Source of the DNA: Desulfobacterales bacterium
Lineage (GTDB): Bacteria > Desulfobacterota > Desulfobacteria > Desulfobacterales > JARGFK01
Reading direction: 5' to 3'
DNA: 64,000 nt
NCBI GenBank assembly: GCA_029211065.1
Contig: JARGFK010000003.1
Span: forward strand, 29,111 to 93,110
Shown here in pieces: positions 6,074 to 49,897 of the stretch; within the stretch, counting starts at the first letter, position 1, and every line of letters starts with the position of its first letter. The notes under the pieces were generated by a model, which saw only the letters and a list, made by a program, of their open reading frames with translations, ran no database searches and was not told the origin of the DNA. The translations under genes were made by a program, and so were the position numbers.

Positions 6074-7351
6074 TCAGGTTTTGCTGAAAATTTCAGTTAA
6101 TCCAAGTTTGTTCACCCGCTGTGCAACCTCTCGCGTATCTGTTGAATAGAGGCCTTTCAGCTTCATACGATCCAGGAACACGGACCCGGAAAAGGTGTAT
6201 TTTAAGCCGAGACCCGCCTCGGTTTTCATCTGGGACCGAACATACTGAATGGCGTCGCCGACCGCCAGTGCAGGCGGCAGGATCAGGGGCTTTTCCCCCT
6301 TGATATATTTTACGGCATTGTAACCGGCCAGGGTGCCGGTACAGATCGCTTCGGTGTGCCCCACCAGCAGCCCGGCCTTTTCTCCGCCGCAGAACAGATT
6401 CTGAATGCCTTCCACTTTGAGGCTGTCGTCCCGGGGGGACATGCCGAAATAGCGGACTGAATTTCCCAGTCCGCCGGCGTAGGGATCTTCATAGCGGGCG
6501 TTTTCAAATCCGGAGATTTCCCGAAGCGCGTCCAGGGGAAAGAAGGGAGACATCAGCTTGGCATGACCGGTATCCAGCAGGACAATGTTGTTCTCAAACT
6601 CCGGCAGCGCATATTGCTGGCAGGCTTTCAGGTTGAGCTTGCCCCTGATGATTTTGGACGGGGGAATGGGAATGACGGCCACGCCCGTTTTGTTCAATTC
6701 ATTCCGGATTTCGGTTGAAAGCGATTCTTTCAGCAATTTACAAGAACCGCTCATGGCGCCGACCTGGTCGCCCTTTCGGCCGATCATCTCCTTTACACCG
6801 GCCTGGGCGGCCAGACTGACGCGGCCGCCAAAAGCATGACAGCGCAAGATACACATGGCACAGCCATTGCCGTACTTGCTGCAATTGGCCGGCGGACCGG
6901 CGGTGCCGGTGGTGTCGATAAAAACATCTCCGGCAAAGGAGAGCGCTTCCTTATTGCATTTGCCGATGATTTTTTTAATTTGACCGCCCGAAATCTCCAC
7001 ATCGGTAATGCGGGTGGAAAGCTGAAGCGTGATGTTGCTTTCCAGCAGAAAGCGCCGGATGATCGGCTCCATGGTGGCCACATTGTACAGCGAAGCATGC
7101 CGGTGCCCCGGGAAATCAAAGTTTCGGTGAAGGGAATTGCGGTCGGTCAGTTGAAAGATCTCGCCGCCGCCCATGGCGATCATTTCCTCTGTGGCCGTGT
7201 AGCGGCCGTTGTTGCGCATAATGCCGCCCACCAGACCGGTCCCCAGCAGCATGTCGGTCCGTTCGACCAGCGTAACCTGGGCCCCTTGCTTTTGGGCTGA
7301 AAGGGCGGCCGCACAACCGGACCAGCCTCCGCCCACGATGATGACTTTCAT
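6074..7351 (-). CDS. FAD-dependent oxidoreductase (GidA/TrmFO-like fold, Cys-rich insert)
   Basis: MKVIIVGGGWSGCAAAL..VTLVER dinucleotide-binding motif, CAMCILRC motif and C-terminal GGEKAG. Confidence 0.7.
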   Translation of the reverse strand: MKVIIVGGGWSGCAAALSAQKQGAQVTLVERTDMLLGTGLVGGIMRNNGRYTATEEMIAMGGGEIFQLTDRNSLHRNFDFPGHRHASLYNVATMEPIIRRFLLESNITLQLSTRITDVEISGGQIKKIIGKCNKEALSFAGDVFIDTTGTAGPPANCSKYGNGCAMCILRCHAFGGRVSLAAQAGVKEMIGRKGDQVGAMSGSCKLLKESLSTEIRNELNKTGVAVIPIPPSKIIRGKLNLKACQQYALPEFENNIVLLDTGHAKLMSPFFPLDALREISGFENARYEDPYAGGLGNSVRYFGMSPRDDSLKVEGIQNLFCGGEKAGLLVGHTEAICTGTLAGYNAVKYIKGEKPLILPPALAVGDAIQYVRSQMKTEAGLGLKYTFSGSVFLDRMKLKGLYSTDTREVAQRVNKLGLTEIFSKT

Positions 7352-38561: not shown

Positions 38562-38596
38562 AGCGGGATGTCTTTTCGCCCCAGGCACGCATTATA

Positions 38597-38692
38597 ATGC
38601 CTAAAGTTTGAAATGCCTAAAATGCCTAAATGTCTGAAACATCTGGTTCTTTAACTTTAGGCAATTTAGGCATTTTAGTTCATTTTAGGCAT
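38597..38692. repeat. 9-nt-unit inverted array, element A, between the convergent cyclase and secretin genes
   Basis: ATGCCTAAA at 38597, 38613 and 38622, with degenerate ATGTCTGAA at 38630. Core catctggttctttaac. Inverted units TTTAGGCAA 38656, TTTAGGCAT 38665, degenerate 38674, TTTAGGCAT 38684. Confidence 0.9.
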
Positions 38693-38758
38693 TTTTATAT
38701 CGCAGGGAAAAGCCGTTTTTCTCAGACCTGCCCCCCGGCTGTGTGAAGCGTTTTAAAC

Positions 38759-40192: not shown

Positions 40193-40255
40193 ATCCCTAT
40201 TTCTCCATACGAACGACGCCTGATTTTTAATTTAAAATTCCCCACAGCAGCCCAA

Positions 40256-40449
40256 CTTGTCTTCGACCCGGAGGCTCATGACCGAAGGGCTCGTCGACAA
40301 GTCTTGCTGAGGGGTAACCTCATATTCCCTCTCCCTGGGGAGAGGGTCAGGGTGAGGGGTAATATAAAATCAGCTTTTGTACCCTGCAGCAACGCGGCTT
40401 GTCTTCGACCCTGAGGCTCATGACCGAGGGGCTCGTCGACATGTCTTGC
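40256..40449. repeat. Two 52-bp direct repeats flanking a REP-like GC hairpin
   Basis: Copies at 40256-40307 and 40398-40449: CTTGTCTTCGACCC[G/T]GAGGCTCATGACCGA[A/G]GGGCTCGTCGACA[A/T]GTCTTGC, 3 mismatches. Between them lies CCCTCTCCctggGGAGAGGGTCAGGGTGAGGGG (40327-40359). Confidence 0.85.
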
Positions 40450-40460
40450 CGCAGGGAGAT

Positions 40461-41012: not shown

Positions 41013-41057
41013 CCTGAAGTGCTCCTTCCCACCCCATTAGCGGCGGAATCATTAAAA

Positions 41058-41117
41058 ATGCCTAAAGTTTGAACTGCCTAAAATTAATAAAATATATGGT
41101 TCTTTCATTTTAGGCAT
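41058..41117. repeat. 9-nt-unit inverted array, element B (shortest)
   Basis: ATGCCTAAA 41058, CTGCCTAAA 41074, core ..tatggttctttca.., TTTAGGCAT 41109. Confidence 0.85.
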
Positions 41118-41132
41118 TCCCGGGTCATCCCC

Positions 41133-41675: not shown

Positions 41676-41682
41676 GTATAGA

Positions 41683-41815
41683 ATGCCTAAAATTGAAACT
41701 GCCTAAAATGCCTAAAATTTGGAATGCCTAAAATGCCTAAGCTACAATTTGTTGTGTCCGAAATATGAGTTTCTTTAATTTTAGGCAATTTAGACATTTT
41801 AAACAATTTATGAAT
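41683..41815. repeat. 9-nt-unit inverted array, element C
   Basis: Forward units at 41683, 41699 (CTG..), 41708, 41724 and 41733 (..AAG). Core ctacaatttgttgtgtccgaaatatgagtttctttaat. Inverted units at 41780 and 41789, then two degenerate 9-mers. The core is roughly 85% identical by eye to element G. Confidence 0.9.
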
Positions 41816-41851
41816 TTTAACTATCACCCGCTGCGTTAACTCGCCCTCATA

Positions 41852-43666: not shown

Positions 43667-45073
43667 TTATTTTCTGGCCCAGGCCAAAGACTCATAAGAA
43701 ATATTAAGCTTGTTGACCTCATCATCTTTGCCCAACTGATATCCATCGTCCAGCAGCAGTTGAATGTGGTTGGTTGTGTTCACTTTACTGCTAAAATACA
43801 TGGATTCATCCGCATTTTTGTCGATGGAAGCGGTGCGGTGAATCATGAATCTACCTGCCGATACGGCTCGAACAATGACATATTCGGGCTTGAATCCCAA
43901 ACCGGTCACATTGCGGTTGTCCTGACCGTCGCCCCCATGTCCGCCGAACTGCTGCTGGCCGGCGATGTTGGGCCAGCACACATAGTGGTAGATCACCCCG
44001 TTTTTGTTTACGCGATCATCGCTGCCCAACCGGAAGCCGTCAAACGGAACCGGCGTCGTCAGGCAGTTGCCCTGTCCCTGGCCGTTGCCAAAGTTAAACG
44101 AGAGGTCGGAATAATTGGACCGGTGCATGACCTCGTGATTCTCCTCAGACAGGACGATGATCAGCTCGGGCTGAAATCCGCCCAGCCCGCTGATGACCCG
44201 GCCGCCGGCGCCGTCACCCGTGTAGGTCCCCACTTTCATTTCTCCGGCAACGGCCCTGAATGCCGCCCAGTAATAAATTGTGCCGCCTTTGTTGACCCGC
44301 CAACCGTTTCCCACCGTAAAGCCTGTGGCATCCAGAGACTGTATCAAATTGCTCAAAATCCCAACGGATCCCACCATGGGTTTGGCGCTCTCGCCGCTCA
44401 TGGTCGCAGTGCGGATGATCCCTTCTGTCCCGTAATCCGCCGCCTTGATAATGACCACATCCGGCTGAAAGCCTACGTTCGTGATGGGGCGGTTGTCCGT
44501 TCCATCGCCCATATAAGCCCCTGTGATCATTTGTTGCGGCCCCGATTTTATGTACATCACATAACTTTGGTGCACCACATTGTCGCCCACAACTCCCACG
44601 GTGGCTACAGCGGCAAAGGTGGTATTCGTGTGCACCCTGACCTTGTAGCCGTAACGGCCTCCGCCCAGATCATGCATGTAATAGACGGTCGGGTCGGCCA
44701 GCGAACCCGGGTCGTTGAGCAGCCGCCACAGGGCATGGTCGGCCGCGGCTTCGGCCAGATAATCGGCCTGCATGCCGCTCAGCCGGTTGGCCGTCGCCTT
44801 TGTCAGGGTGCCGGCCTTGAAGAGAAACGCCATGGCCAGGGTGGACATAATTGCCAGGAGTACGAGGATGGCGACGTAGGCGAGGCCGGATTGGGGGAAG
44901 TGCCTGGAAAAGAAATGCCTAAAATGCCTAAAATGAGCTAAATTGCCTACACGGAATGAAATGCCTAAATTGCCAAAAATGCCAAAAATGCCTAAAATTG
45001 CAGATCGTAGACAATTTGCCGTTTGCTTGAAAAATGTAAGTTCATTTGAGTTCATTTTTGGCATCTTTAGCAT
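43667..45073 (-). CDS. PilX/GspK-like pseudopilin: N-terminal hydrophobic helix plus three ~95-aa tandem repeats. The first ~60 codons of the ORF are encoded by repeat element D.
   Basis: QSGLAYVAILVLLAIMSTLAMAFL...QADYLAEAAADHALWRLL is PilX_N/GspK-like. Repeats lie at about aa 183-277, 278-372 and 373-468, with signature G.Y.GDG...R.[IV]..[LV]GF[QK]P[DE]..I[IV]. The only in-frame ATG/GTG/TTG upstream of the helix are at 45073, 45064 and 45055, inside element D. Confidence 0.65.
   Translation of the reverse strand: MLKMPKMNSNELTFFKQTANCLRSAILGIFGIFGNLGISFRVGNLAHFRHFRHFFSRHFPQSGLAYVAILVLLAIMSTLAMAFLFKAGTLTKATANRLSGMQADYLAEAAADHALWRLLNDPGSLADPTVYYMHDLGGGRYGYKVRVHTNTTFAAVATVGVVGDNVVHQSYVMYIKSGPQQMITGAYMGDGTDNRPITNVGFQPDVVIIKAADYGTEGIIRTATMSGESAKPMVGSVGILSNLIQSLDATGFTVGNGWRVNKGGTIYYWAAFRAVAGEMKVGTYTGDGAGGRVISGLGGFQPELIIVLSEENHEVMHRSNYSDLSFNFGNGQGQGNCLTTPVPFDGFRLGSDDRVNKNGVIYHYVCWPNIAGQQQFGGHGGDGQDNRNVTGLGFKPEYVIVRAVSAGRFMIHRTASIDKNADESMYFSSKVNTTNHIQLLLDDGYQLGKDDEVNKLNISYESLAWARK
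44915..45073. repeat. 9-nt-unit array, element D, containing a plus-strand remnant of a four-helix-bundle gene 5' end
   Basis: Units at 44915, 44924, 44933 (deg.), 44942 (deg.), 44961, 44970 (deg.), 44979 (deg.) and 44988. Then ATT GCA GAT CGT AGA CAA TTT GCC (I A D R R Q F A), compared with I V E R K Q F A in the intact gene. Inverted units TTTTGGCAT 45056 and CTTTAGCAT 45065. Confidence 0.9.
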
Positions 45074-45107
45074 TACTCATTTCCCTTTTCAGCCATTTTG
45101 GATCGGG

Positions 45108-45482
45108 TCATTTTCTTCTTCCGATGGAAGTAAAAATAGCAAGCAATTCGCTGCATTCTTCATACAGGGGTTTCACCTTTTCCCATGCCATCCATCCGGC
45201 TTCAACGATGACTTCCAGCCAATACTGAGTTTCGCTGGCTTCACTTTCGCAAATTTTTATTTTGTTTTTAAAATCAGCCCGGCTCCTTGACCGGTTGGCC
45301 TCACGGTAGTTTGCGCCGATGGAGGTTCCGGATTTGGCAATCTGGGTTCGAATCACCGTGCACTCAGGCGTATTGTACAGTGTGGATGATAAACGGATTA
45401 TTTGCACGGCAAATATGCGCGTGCGCTTCTCAAGGTCTTTGGCAAATTGCTTTCGCTCAACAATTTTAGGCATTTCAGGCAT
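45108..45482 (-). CDS. Four-helix-bundle protein (23S rRNA intervening-sequence protein / Avd family, PF05635-like)
   Basis: 124 aa. ...FAVQIIRLSSTL......IAKSGTSIGANYREANRSRSRADFKNKIKICESEASETQYWLEV... is the family core (GANI.EA, F..K..I...E..ET.YWL). The first codons, ATG CCT GAA ATG CCT AAA, are repeat units. Confidence 0.85.
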   Translation of the reverse strand: MPEMPKIVERKQFAKDLEKRTRIFAVQIIRLSSTLYNTPECTVIRTQIAKSGTSIGANYREANRSRSRADFKNKIKICESEASETQYWLEVIVEAGWMAWEKVKPLYEECSELLAIFTSIGRRK

Positions 45483-45535
45483 TTTAGGTCTTTCACACCA
45501 TTTTAGTCATTTTTAATTTTAGGCACTTTAGGCAT
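45465..45535. repeat. 9-nt-unit array, element E. All units are in TTTAGGCAT orientation and overlap the start of the four-helix-bundle gene.
   Basis: TTTAGGCAT 45465, TTCAGGCAT 45474, TTTAGGTCT 45483, degenerate units 45492-45517, TTTAGGCAC 45518, TTTAGGCAT 45527. Confidence 0.9.
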
Positions 45536-45540
45536 TTTCT

Positions 45541-46431
45541 TTACCTCACCCTCTTGCCGGTTTTCTGAAAGACGTTTCTGGGGCAGACATATTCTGTAAA
45601 CGTAGCGCTTTCTCCGTTATCGCCAGTAAGAGATAGGGTAATGCGTATCCGTTCCGGGGCTTCGAAAAAGGCCTCGAAGTTGGTCACGTGATCCGACAAG
45701 ACCACCTTGGGTGCAGAACCCAATATGCCTGTGACAGGGTCGGAATGTATTTCAGTAAGGGTTTTAGCAGCAGAATTATACAAATACACTGCGAAAAGAA
45801 CCACCTCCTCGTTTTTAAGCCCGTCCTCATCATCATCACTATCCTCACCTACTCCTTCGTCCACCTGTCCATCACCATCATCATCTATACCCTTAATACC
45901 GTAGGCACCGTCCTGGTTCATATCTTTCGTCACGTTCTCGTCGATATTCCCGTCCAAATCATTGTCTAACCCATCAAACTTGTCTTCACCAGTGAGTCCA
46001 TCTTCATCATCATCAGATTGTTGTCCTTCATCAAACAGCTCATCACCGTCTTCATCGACGCCCCGGATGCCGTAGCCGCCCGATGAAAAATAATCATGCG
46101 TATCTTCATCGATGCGTGGAAATAAAGGGTTCCCCCACGCCCCGAAGTAGAAGTCACCGTCGGTGTTGACCAAACGGGAAAATGCCAGGATGTCTCGCGA
46201 GGGTTTGCGGTTGTTGGGAACCGTAAGGAAGGTTGTTTTTTTAGCTCCAGCGGTCATGCGTTCAATGGCCAGCAGGCCTTCCTGATAAAGCCGGGAGCGG
46301 GCGATGCCGCTGCGGTGGGCATCCAGGCTGCTGGAAAGAAGGGGGGTGGCCACCGCGGCAATGATCAGCAAAATGGTGACGGTAATCAGCAACTCCATCA
46401 GGGTCAGGCCGTTTTCACCGCATTTCCTCAT
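45541..46431 (-). CDS. Prepilin-type minor pilin/pseudopilin with a large acidic, Ca-binding-like insertion
   Basis: N-terminal GLTLMELLITVTILLIIAAV (prepilin cleavage/methylation type). Residues about 106-208 are Asp/Glu-rich, with duplicated YGI[RK]G[VI]D[ED]DGD...DEG...SDDDEDGL. Confidence 0.7.
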   Translation of the reverse strand: MRKCGENGLTLMELLITVTILLIIAAVATPLLSSSLDAHRSGIARSRLYQEGLLAIERMTAGAKKTTFLTVPNNRKPSRDILAFSRLVNTDGDFYFGAWGNPLFPRIDEDTHDYFSSGGYGIRGVDEDGDELFDEGQQSDDDEDGLTGEDKFDGLDNDLDGNIDENVTKDMNQDGAYGIKGIDDDGDGQVDEGVGEDSDDDEDGLKNEEVVLFAVYLYNSAAKTLTEIHSDPVTGILGSAPKVVLSDHVTNFEAFFEAPERIRITLSLTGDNGESATFTEYVCPRNVFQKTGKRVR

Positions 46432-46856: not shown

Positions 46857-46864
46857 GGTAAAAA

Positions 46865-47029
46865 ATGCCTAAAGTTTGGAATGCCTAAAATGCCTAAAGT
46901 TTGCAAATGCCTAAAGTTTGTAAATGCCTAAGATGCCTAAAATTTGGAGATCTGGTTTCATGGTCTATGGCAAACTGTTTTCGTTCGTCCATTTTAGGCA
47001 ATTTAGGCATTTCAGCTCATTTTAGGCAT
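46865..47029. repeat. 9-nt-unit inverted array, element F, containing a minus-strand remnant of a four-helix-bundle gene 5' end
   Basis: Forward units at 46865, 46881, 46890, 46907, 46924 (..AAG) and 46933. Inverted units at 46993, 47002, 47011 (deg.) and 47021. Minus strand 47010->46948 reads ATG CCT AAA TTG CCT AAA ATG GAC GAA CGA AAA CAG TTT GCC ATA GAC CAT GAA ACC AGA TCT (MPKLPKMDERKQFAIDHETRS). Compare MPEMPKIVERKQFAKDLEKRT in the intact gene. Confidence 0.9.
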
Positions 47030-47037
47030 TTGTTCTT

Positions 47038-49679: not shown

Positions 49680-49687
49680 AATCTAAA

Positions 49688-49818
49688 ATGCCTAAAATGC
49701 CTGAAATTGAAAATGCCTAAAGGTGAAAATGCCTAAAATGCCTGACCTGCAATTTCTTGTGTCAGTAATATGTGTTTCTTTAATTTTAGGCAATTTAGGC
49801 ATTCATCAGTTTAGGTAT
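49688..49818. repeat. 9-nt-unit inverted array, element G, between pilB and pilC
   Basis: Forward units at 49688, 49697 (..GAA), 49713, 49729 and 49738 (..GAC). Core ctgcaatttcttgtgtcagtaatatgtgtttctttaat. Inverted units at 49785, 49794 and 49810 (deg.). Confidence 0.9.
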
Positions 49819-49897
49819 TTATTATTTCACAAGGCTCTGACTGGCCCAGAGGACCAGATTTACGGGATCGACATCTCCATTGTATCGTTTAAACAAG

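Follow-up and report, generated by a model that had tools for sequence, protein, structure and literature searches.

To our knowledge, no function has been known since the 1990s for the PF05635/S23p protein family outside the diversity-generating retroelements (DGRs). Two of its members have solved structures, and the heptamer and nonamer arrays found in bacterial operon gaps are an equally old puzzle. Here, we analyze a stretch of 64,000 nt from a Desulfobacterales bacterium (JARGFK010000003.1, positions 29,111 to 93,110; henceforth the window), in which a gene assigned to this family, encoding a four-helix-bundle (4HB) protein, is framed by tandem arrays of a 9-nt unit; the gene and its arrays are referred to as the cassette.

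Two described systems come closest. The first one is the intervening sequence (IVS) of 23S rRNA. The Coxiella IVS has a 28-bp terminal stem that is cut by RNase III, and three to four GACAGAT heptamers, strain-variable in number, lie just upstream of its S23p open reading frame (ORF) (PMC4990558). The second one is the GGGAATC array of Xanthomonas. In Xanthomonas campestris, such an array lies 6 nt after bccP and has a 17-nt overlap with the start codon of XCC0516 (PMC4692102 supplement, Rehm et al. 2015). XCC0516 is a crystallised 4HB protein (2GSC), and XAC0531 is listed with the same array overlap (PMC4692102 supplement). Inverted array pairs occupy the groES/groEL, atpA/atpG, atpD/atpC, gltB/gltD and holC/pepA gaps, a single array lies in xpsE/xpsF, and the main text of Rehm et al. 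leaves the protein family of XCC0516 unmentioned (PMC4692102). Our literature searches on the repeat sequence and on 4HB proteins with repeats or IVSs, subscription journals being outside their scope, gave no gene-array link outside rRNA. The original prediction that such a cassette is undescribed therefore stands for the link between the 4HB family and the arrays, which we did not find described outside rRNA, and fails for its parts, since IVSs bearing S23p and the Xanthomonas arrays are both published. The cassette of the window comprises the following features:

45108-45482, minus strand: intact 4HB gene of 124 aa (PF05635/TIGR02436, pI 9.4), in the same orientation as the operon
45463-45538, minus strand: array E, a 5' direct array of about 8.6 units AAATGCCTA, holding the 4HB ATGs at 45482 and 45473; 5' arm of the predicted hairpin
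45039-45107, minus strand: 3' spacer with the degenerate direct units ATGCTAAAG, ATGCCAAAA and ATGAACTCA and the only usable in-frame starts of a GspK-like gene (45073, 45064 and 45055)
44999-45038, plus strand: inverted copy of about the first eight codons behind the array units, reading IADRRQFA; belongs to the hairpin's 3' arm
44913-44998, plus strand: array D, inverted, 9.4 units, the reverse complement of E along the operon strand; 3' arm of the hairpin, translated in the leader of the GspK-like ORF

The 124-aa ORF is assigned by its profile matches to the PF05635/TIGR02436 4HB (23S rRNA IVS protein, S23p) family, as had been predicted. It matches PF05635 (23S_rRNA_IVP) with 68.7 bits against a cut-off of 33.8 (E = 6e-19) and TIGR02436 (four helix bundle protein) with 84.8 bits against a cut-off of 24 (E = 4.4e-24), and a profile search of the PDB led to 2RLD (E = 8.7e-29). 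Searches of PHROGs and PADLOC gave no match for the protein. The AlphaFold2 model (a monomer, from an alignment of 18 homologues) has a pLDDT of 92 and places helices at 7-33, 39-63, 68-94 and 100-122. According to Foldseek, the closest solved fold to this model is BT_0352 (2RLD), with a template-modelling (TM) score of 0.80-0.91 and an identity of 38-39%, and Xanthomonas XCC0516 (2GSC) scores 0.78-0.86. Homopentamers are reported in the literature for 2GSC and for Avd, the DGR protein that, as part of the DGR complex, forms a pentameric ring holding RNA and a partner enzyme. Avd is also small, basic and a four-helix bundle; the model resembles it with a TM score of 0.70-0.81 (8UB7, 4DWL), and Pfam detects Avd-like proteins with PF05635 (PMC10053308). 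That the gene is the Avd accessory gene of a DGR is nevertheless scarcely credible. Its identity to Avd is 12-14%, compared with 38-39% to 2RLD, and every ORF read as a gene from 38.7 to 51.6 kb resembles a component of a pilus or type II secretion system (T2SS). Membership fails because there is no reverse transcriptase gene among these neighbors; a template/variable repeat pair was not searched for.

As originally claimed, the gene is bounded by arrays, and its opening codons, ATG CCT GAA ATG CCT AAA, are themselves array units. Tandem Repeats Finder places the period-9 arrays D and E at the positions above and reports more arrays at 38.6, 41.7, 46.9-47.0 and 49.7 kb. The exact unit AAATGCCTA, which gives (AAATGCCTA)n as DNA and (AAAUGCCUA)n as RNA, occurs 22 times against 0.63 expected, and all 22 copies fall between 38611 and 49735. 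Every element has direct units on one side and their reverse complement on the other, so that the units form convergent pairs within intergenic gaps as the GGGAATC-type arrays of Xanthomonas do. The elements sit in operon gaps or at the 3' end of the operon, and D reaches into the 5' end of the GspK-like ORF as well. Rfam gave nothing above threshold for the arrays. Folding of 44905-45545 (minus strand, operon sense) as RNA yields -206 kcal/mol against -157.5 +/- 7.2 for shuffles (z = -6.8). In the predicted stem, with arms of roughly 100 nt, E and the first dozen codons of the gene pair with D and the inverted codon copy, the ORF remaining in the loop; over 48 nt, the D arm has 81% complementarity to the gene's 5' end. 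As in an IVS, the ORF is enclosed by terminal inverted repeats that are predicted to pair into a stem.

The cassette has neither a convincing promoter nor a convincing Shine-Dalgarno sequence of its own. TAAAAT, a good -10 hexamer, is part of each unit and precedes the next ATG by about 7 nt (e.g., 45481-45510, minus strand, and 44970-44998, plus strand). Promoter-like hits between 38.4 and 52.2 kb amount to 23 against 14.2 +/- 2.7 expected. For the 9-mer family, one can conceive of leaderless transcripts that begin at an array ATG. As a general property of such arrays this was ruled out, because the heptamer families described below lack a TAAAAT-like hexamer.

A protein search with the 4HB protein gave at least 7991 close homologues among the 8000 candidates scored, which makes PF05635/S23p a very large family. 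The best 120 of these have identities of 73-91% and derive for the most part from Desulfobacterales-type metagenome bins, and many homologues are annotated with N-termini reading MPKMPK..., MPKMPEMPK... or VPKV.... Seven close homologues were picked regardless of their flanks (L001, L011, L012 and L135-L138), and all seven have flanking arrays; the 4HB gene is co-oriented with its neighbors in 7/7 annotated loci. L012 and L133 are orthologous to the window locus and share its gene order and D-type arm, and in L137 the 4HB gene is followed by an inverted array and then by the GspK-like ORF. The start codon lies inside the array in the window, L011, L012, L133 and XCC0516. A second direct array follows the gene in the window, L011, L148 and L155, an arrangement that would allow gene loss or gain by recombination. 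Concerning other sites, L136 (a genome of 39% GC) has an intact 4HB gene in its PilN/PilO gap and several arrays too, and L001, L135 and L138 have 4HB cassettes in a leucine-catabolism operon. Specifically, L135 has a single copy in HMGL/HTH and a 204-nt ACAD/ECH gap without arrays; L138 has an intact copy in ACAD/ECH, and its HMGL/HTH copy carries an in-frame TAG.

The AAATGCCTA consensus is identical in all nine loci of the subfamily, in hosts of 28% to 55% GC, and is held constant either by selection or by continual homogenisation and transfer. Cassettes with this unit also occur in L054 (28% GC, a Bacteroidales bin) and in L136 and L053 (about 39-40% GC, 'Ca. Anammoxibacter' bin), with 4HB proteins 62-81% identical to that of the window. 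The presence of the cassette in hosts of very different GC suggests horizontal transfer, mis-binning being also possible.

The same layout extends to divergent members of the family. When viral contigs were scanned twice with 4HB alignments, 13 distinct loci came up, their proteins 38-52% identical to the reference sequence of the alignment; eleven of these loci were examined together with an incidental 4HB gene in L015. Most of them have a 7-nt tandem array upstream of the 4HB gene and its reverse complement downstream, the units being GATTGCG, GAACGTA, ATAACGA, TAATGAA, GACAATT, AAGGGTA and TAATGTA. For 19 4HB genes, the best inverted-repeat score between the flanks reaches a median of about 23, against 8.8 +/- 1.9 for 128 random positions in the same loci, and exceeds 13.6 in 17 of the 19 (Mann-Whitney p = 1.4e-12). 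Additionally, an array of the GATTGCG type flanks the divergent 4HB genes of L015 and L142. L148 and L150 are paralogous genes on one 42.6-kb IMG/VR contig, with GAACGTA and TAATGAA heptamers respectively, and a GC-rich hairpin and a conserved leader follow each of them.

A full copy consists of a direct array, a 4HB gene with its 5' end in or next to that array, and an inverted array. The ratio of nonsynonymous to synonymous substitution (dN/dS) between 4HB copies is 0.03-0.15 at often saturated dS; the protein is under strong purifying selection and therefore functional.

The window holds further, gene-less elements, listed here with the GspK-like gene (z, RNA fold against shuffles):

38595-38694, minus strand: element A, gene-less array hairpin after the secretin gene, core AAAGAACCAGATG, z = -7.8
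41056-41119, minus strand: element C, short gene-less array hairpin between the PilO-like and 183-aa genes, z = -2.2
41681-41820, minus strand: element B, between PilN and PilO-like, z = -4.9
43667-45073, minus strand: GspK-like minor pseudopilin (DUF7483), its first ~62 codons encoded by element D
46863-47031, minus strand: element F, between GspH and a 142-aa minor pilin, z = -3.4; array, 4HB 5' remnant at 46958-46989 (MDERKQFAIDHE), then ACCAGATCTCC and an inverted array
49686-49820, minus strand: element G, between GspE and GspF, z = -4.1

The original prediction regarded several of these as decayed copies of the gene. With the arrays removed, each core was aligned to the 4HB gene, dinucleotide shuffles serving as the null. 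For F, the homology claimed is upheld: its core scores 33 against 16.5 +/- 2.4 for shuffles (p < 5e-4) in the correct place and orientation, the alignment beginning about 7 codons into the gene, and the remnant region is 80% identical to the 5' end of the gene over 64 nt. The ACCAGATCTCC that comes after the remnant is similar to ACCCGATCC, the sequence behind the stop codon of the intact gene. F therefore has the appearance of the first ~12 codons fused to the 3' flank and is an internal-deletion derivative of the gene cassette. A similar case, from an independent genome, is the mini-gene of L136 at 6517-6555 (MHRKQFANGNSK, then a stop codon), in which the first 7 codons are fused to the last 4. 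Internal deletion of the gene has thus given rise to some, at least, of the gene-less hairpins. The claim that A and B are such derivatives had to be dropped: neither they nor C and G resemble the gene beyond shuffles (p = 0.14-0.97), and gene remnants in these four are ruled out. For D, the copy of the 5' end (44988 onward, plus strand, MPKIADRRQFA) is in register with the array, and its IADRRQFA agrees with IADRKQFA of P0001 in 7/8 residues, but the DNA similarity is not significant (p = 0.32); since the stem pairs E and the first codons with D, the latter should preferably be regarded as the hairpin's 3' arm and not as a decayed copy in its own right. A AAAGAACCAGAT-type core is common to A, C and F. 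Between B and G, the identity is 86% over 94 nt, and their core is related to this type yet distinct from it. At the F site of L133, the core is ATTAAAGAACCAGATATTTC, of the type of A and C, without the 33-nt remnant, and the span of that site varies (169 nt in the window, 109 nt in L012, about 160 nt in L133).

A cassette with decayed copies recalls MITEs (miniature inverted-repeat transposable elements), and these could be ordinary MITEs moved in trans by a transposase (e.g., RAYT-like or encoded by an insertion sequence), with the 4HB gene as captured cargo. The terminal inverted repeats and the many dispersed short copies, mostly intergenic (129/156 arrays lie outside long open frames), agree with this, as do the hosts of very different GC and the differing occupancy of gaps in related operons (L135 and L138). 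We consider it very improbable all the same. There is no transposase in or beside gene-bearing copies, whose only gene is the 4HB gene, target-site duplications are not recognizable, the ends are tandem arrays of variable length with undefined termini, and a cargo role fails to explain why unrelated units all flank one gene family. As a source of decayed copies, the cassette is supported by F, by the L136 mini-gene and by pseudogenes and truncated copies (L020, L067, L103 and the second copy of L138). It is also supported by gaps with a short element in the window and a 4HB gene or pseudogene elsewhere: PilN/PilO holds the gene in L136 and B in the window, and GspE/GspF holds a pseudogene in L020 and G in the window. 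Most gene-less arrays have no remnant.

We consider it moderately probable that the cassette is an IVS-like palindromic element of intercistronic operon RNA, which RNase III probably cuts and of whose arrays the 4HB protein is the likely partner; the anatomical part of this reading is much firmer than the mechanistic part. By analogy with the 23S rRNA IVSs carrying the same ORF family, RNase III would cut the stem, and the element would be removed from the polycistronic RNA or divide it, leaving the neighboring cistrons unharmed. Because the stem would be cut in this way, the cassette may be tolerated where a transcript can be split, i.e., at the tips of rRNA helices and in operon spacers. The 4HB protein, which is basic and presumably ring-forming, would bind tandem units as RNA or single-stranded DNA and could in this way regulate both the formation of the hairpin and its own translation, and/or assist in maintaining and spreading the arrays. 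Spread would be slow, by recombination between arrays and horizontal transfer with no dedicated transposase. Slow mobility is what the lack of a transposase, target-site duplication and clean empty site indicates, together with the age of a copy syntenic in four genomes.

Several findings weigh against this reading. RNase III cleavage, 4HB expression and 4HB-array binding are all things that we infer, and the Coxiella study considers that S23p is probably not made in vivo (PMC4990558). The array edges decay gradually, with no target-site duplication and no clean empty site. A metagenome scan with the 296-aa minor pilin encoded next to the 4HB gene gave only two orthologous loci, one of them too short to show an empty site, so no clean presence/absence comparison of the window sites could be made from them. 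The window copy is syntenic in the window, L012, L133 and L137 at dS up to ~2 and thus behaves as a stable resident. The seven elements are gathered in one operon, with none in the other 50 kb, which is unlike random insertion. L148, L149 and L150 encode proteins that are closely similar by eye and carry different, though related, heptamers, which weakens a strict match between protein and unit; a specificity of one protein for one unit is unsupported. Finally, a scan for two tandem units, taking one genome per species, gave at least 120 array loci, mostly from Desulfobacterales bins with some from Bacteroidota and other phyla, and about 112 of the 120 listed have no 4HB gene within 8 kb; of the arrays, about 95% are gene-less. 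Only about 8 adjoin a 4HB gene or its wreck: the gene is intact in L052, L054 and L110, frameshifted and truncated in L020 (after a GspE homologue, the gap of element G in the window), interrupted by a nonsense codon in L067 and reduced to its 3' third in L103. Among about 190 arrays, an in-frame run into an RKQFA-type peptide was found only in intact genes and in D and F of the window, and hence the derivation of a MITE from a gene cassette is demonstrated for a minority only. In short, 4HB genes are almost always found with arrays, and arrays seldom with genes.

Since nearly all of these gene-less arrays also lack remnants, the arrays could be primary. They would then be self-propagating simple-sequence hairpins like GGGAATC or the cyanobacterial STRR, arising by slippage or recombination or selected as RNA stem-loops or G-quadruplex (G4)-type structures, and the gene would be a passenger that settles or is kept within them. 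The unequal array lengths at orthologous sites, as at the F site, fit this well, and so does Xanthomonas, where out of ~186 arrays only one (two arrays in two species) is tied to a 4HB gene. We nonetheless hold this to be unlikely, if with a real chance of being right. The 17 of 19 independently sampled 4HB genes with inverted tandem arrays stand well apart from the controls, the unit changes with the 4HB lineage, the gene starts inside the array in the five cases given above, and a dN/dS of 0.03-0.15 across saturated dS is unexpected for a pure passenger.

Other short tandem arrays were observed in intergenic regions of the same Desulfobacterales-type genomes, often beside AAATGCCTA arrays, with units such as GGTTCAGAG, ACGAACTCA, GGAGATCAG, GGATTGC/AATCCGC, TTGAGTCTA and GTGAGGG (L001 at 2140-2205, L014 at 1370-1560, L015 at 1520-1580, L112, L113, L115 and L119).

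The 4HB gene belongs to a 13-gene, minus-strand operon resembling those of T2SS and type IV pili, in the order GspE, GspF, pilin, GspH, two minor pilins, 4HB, GspK-like (DUF7483), PilM, PilN, PilO-like, 183-aa and 477-aa. Among the ORFs of at least 90 aa that were read as genes from 38.7 to 51.6 kb, nine were recognized as pilus/T2SS components by Pfam and the rest by length and sequence; the 477-aa ORF is read as a secretin, its L136 homologue having a Secretin domain. The predicted position of the 4HB gene between minor-pilin genes is correct, its neighbors being the 296-aa minor pilin and the GspK-like gene. Between 45055 and 44848 the GspK-like ORF has no in-frame ATG, GTG or TTG, and 44848 falls within the hydrophobic helix of the protein; in the lack of any other usable in-frame start, it must begin at a degenerate array unit (ATG at 45073, 45064 or 45055). 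Element D thereby provides a leader of ~62 residues (MLKMPKMNSNELTFFKQTANCLRSAILGIFGIFGNLGISFRVGNLAHFRHFRHFF...) up to a predicted prepilin cleavage site between QSG and LAYVAIL. The same start and leader arrangement is present in L012 and L137, and in L137 the ATG of the GspK-like ORF overlaps the 4HB stop codon.

Such a setting raises the alternative that the 4HB gene and the arrays have been domesticated and regulate this pilus/T2SS-like operon: the protein would bind the seven array hairpins, as RNA or DNA, and set how strongly pilins, assembly proteins and secretin are expressed relative to one another. The seven elements are confined to 11 kb of a single operon, the rest of the 64 kb having none, the gene stands upstream of the GspK-like gene in the four syntenic genomes, and the latter takes its start and leader from the element. 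A 4HB gene with several arrays in the PilMNO-secretin operon of L136 and the Xanthomonas array in the xpsE/xpsF gap are further points in its favor. Still, we find it rather improbable, as the cassette also occurs in two different gaps of the leucine-catabolism operon and in Xanthomonas accB/accC, and pseudogenised copies occur. Homologues of the operon proteins were found in only 3/120 listed array loci, and pilus/T2SS specificity of the arrays is ruled out as a general rule.

Other features of the operon were also recorded. The 296-aa minor pilin (45541-46431, minus strand) has acidic repeats rich in D-x-D-x-D-G-type motifs (DEDGDELFDEG..., DDDEDGLTGED..., DNDLDGNIDEN..., IDDDGDGQVDEG...), which suggests calcium-binding loops. 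Between the secretin and 183-aa genes there are two copies, 84% identical, of a GC-rich palindromic repeat of 75 nt that is unlike the arrays (40240-40314 and 40382-40456). Near these repeats, a weak match to the whalefall-1 RNA of Rfam was detected below threshold at 40325-40359 (E = 0.012).

For annotation, neighboring genes can receive start codons and N-terminal leaders from arrays, as the GspK-like gene does, gene callers pick inconsistent 4HB starts at arrays (products of 117 to 134 aa), and metagenome assemblies are probably broken by them. A broader and more tentative proposal, which we think possible and would not bet on, is that PF05635 4HB proteins are the dedicated trans-acting partners of a widespread class of palindromic elements made of short tandem repeats that have so far gone unconnected, namely rRNA IVSs, GGGAATC arrays, STRR-type heptamers and Desulfobacterales nonamers. 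If so, a ring-shaped protein would read several units at once, in RNA or single-stranded DNA, in maintaining, processing or spreading the arrays, and the family would be a selfish or symbiotic one using a non-enzymatic protein with host RNase III and recombination instead of a transposase. If the 4HB family and the arrays belong together, each gains a testable hypothesis that is tractable in Xanthomonas campestris (XCC0516 and its ~186 GGGAATC arrays).

Compared with the 23S IVSs of Coxiella burnetii, Leptospira and others, the cassette has the same ORF family, a terminal stem and upstream tandem repeats. Poor Shine-Dalgarno sequences, transcription only within the host transcript (presumed for the cassette) and the existence of ORF-less versions are also common to both. 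Membership fails because of location: the cassette lies between protein-coding cistrons (a minor pilin and the GspK-like gene) and not in a 23S rRNA helix, Rfam detecting no rRNA in 38-50.5 kb. Its arms are arrays of 60-90 nt instead of a stem of ~28 bp, its gene-less copies are dispersed and numerous, and its ORF is under strong purifying selection whereas that of the Coxiella IVS is reported to be decaying; cutting by RNase III is known for the IVS and would be expected for the cassette by analogy. The GGGAATC arrays of Xanthomonas and the cyanobacterial STRR share with the window 7-9-nt tandem units, often in convergent pairs 20-70 nt apart, with possible stem-loops. The Xanthomonas arrays likewise occupy operon gaps, including xpsE/xpsF, vary in length at conserved sites and in one case overlap the XCC0516 start. 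However, the unit of the window is an A/T-rich 9-mer incapable of forming a G-quadruplex, and the published Xanthomonas arrays have been treated as G4-forming repeats, unconnected to a 4HB gene. MITEs and their autonomous parents are similar in that internal-deletion derivatives keep both ends (as F and the L136 mini-gene do) and in their many non-coding copies; with no recognizable target-site duplication or fixed termini the cassette differs from them, and it fails membership because it has no transposase. REP/BIME palindromes with their RAYT differ in turn, being single palindromes and not tandem arrays, and the 124-aa helical bundle has no nuclease or transposase fold. Nevertheless, they are the nearest functional analogy to the cassette: many short intergenic palindromes accompany a rare gene flanked by the same repeats, and they lie in operon gaps, where their hairpins affect the mRNA.

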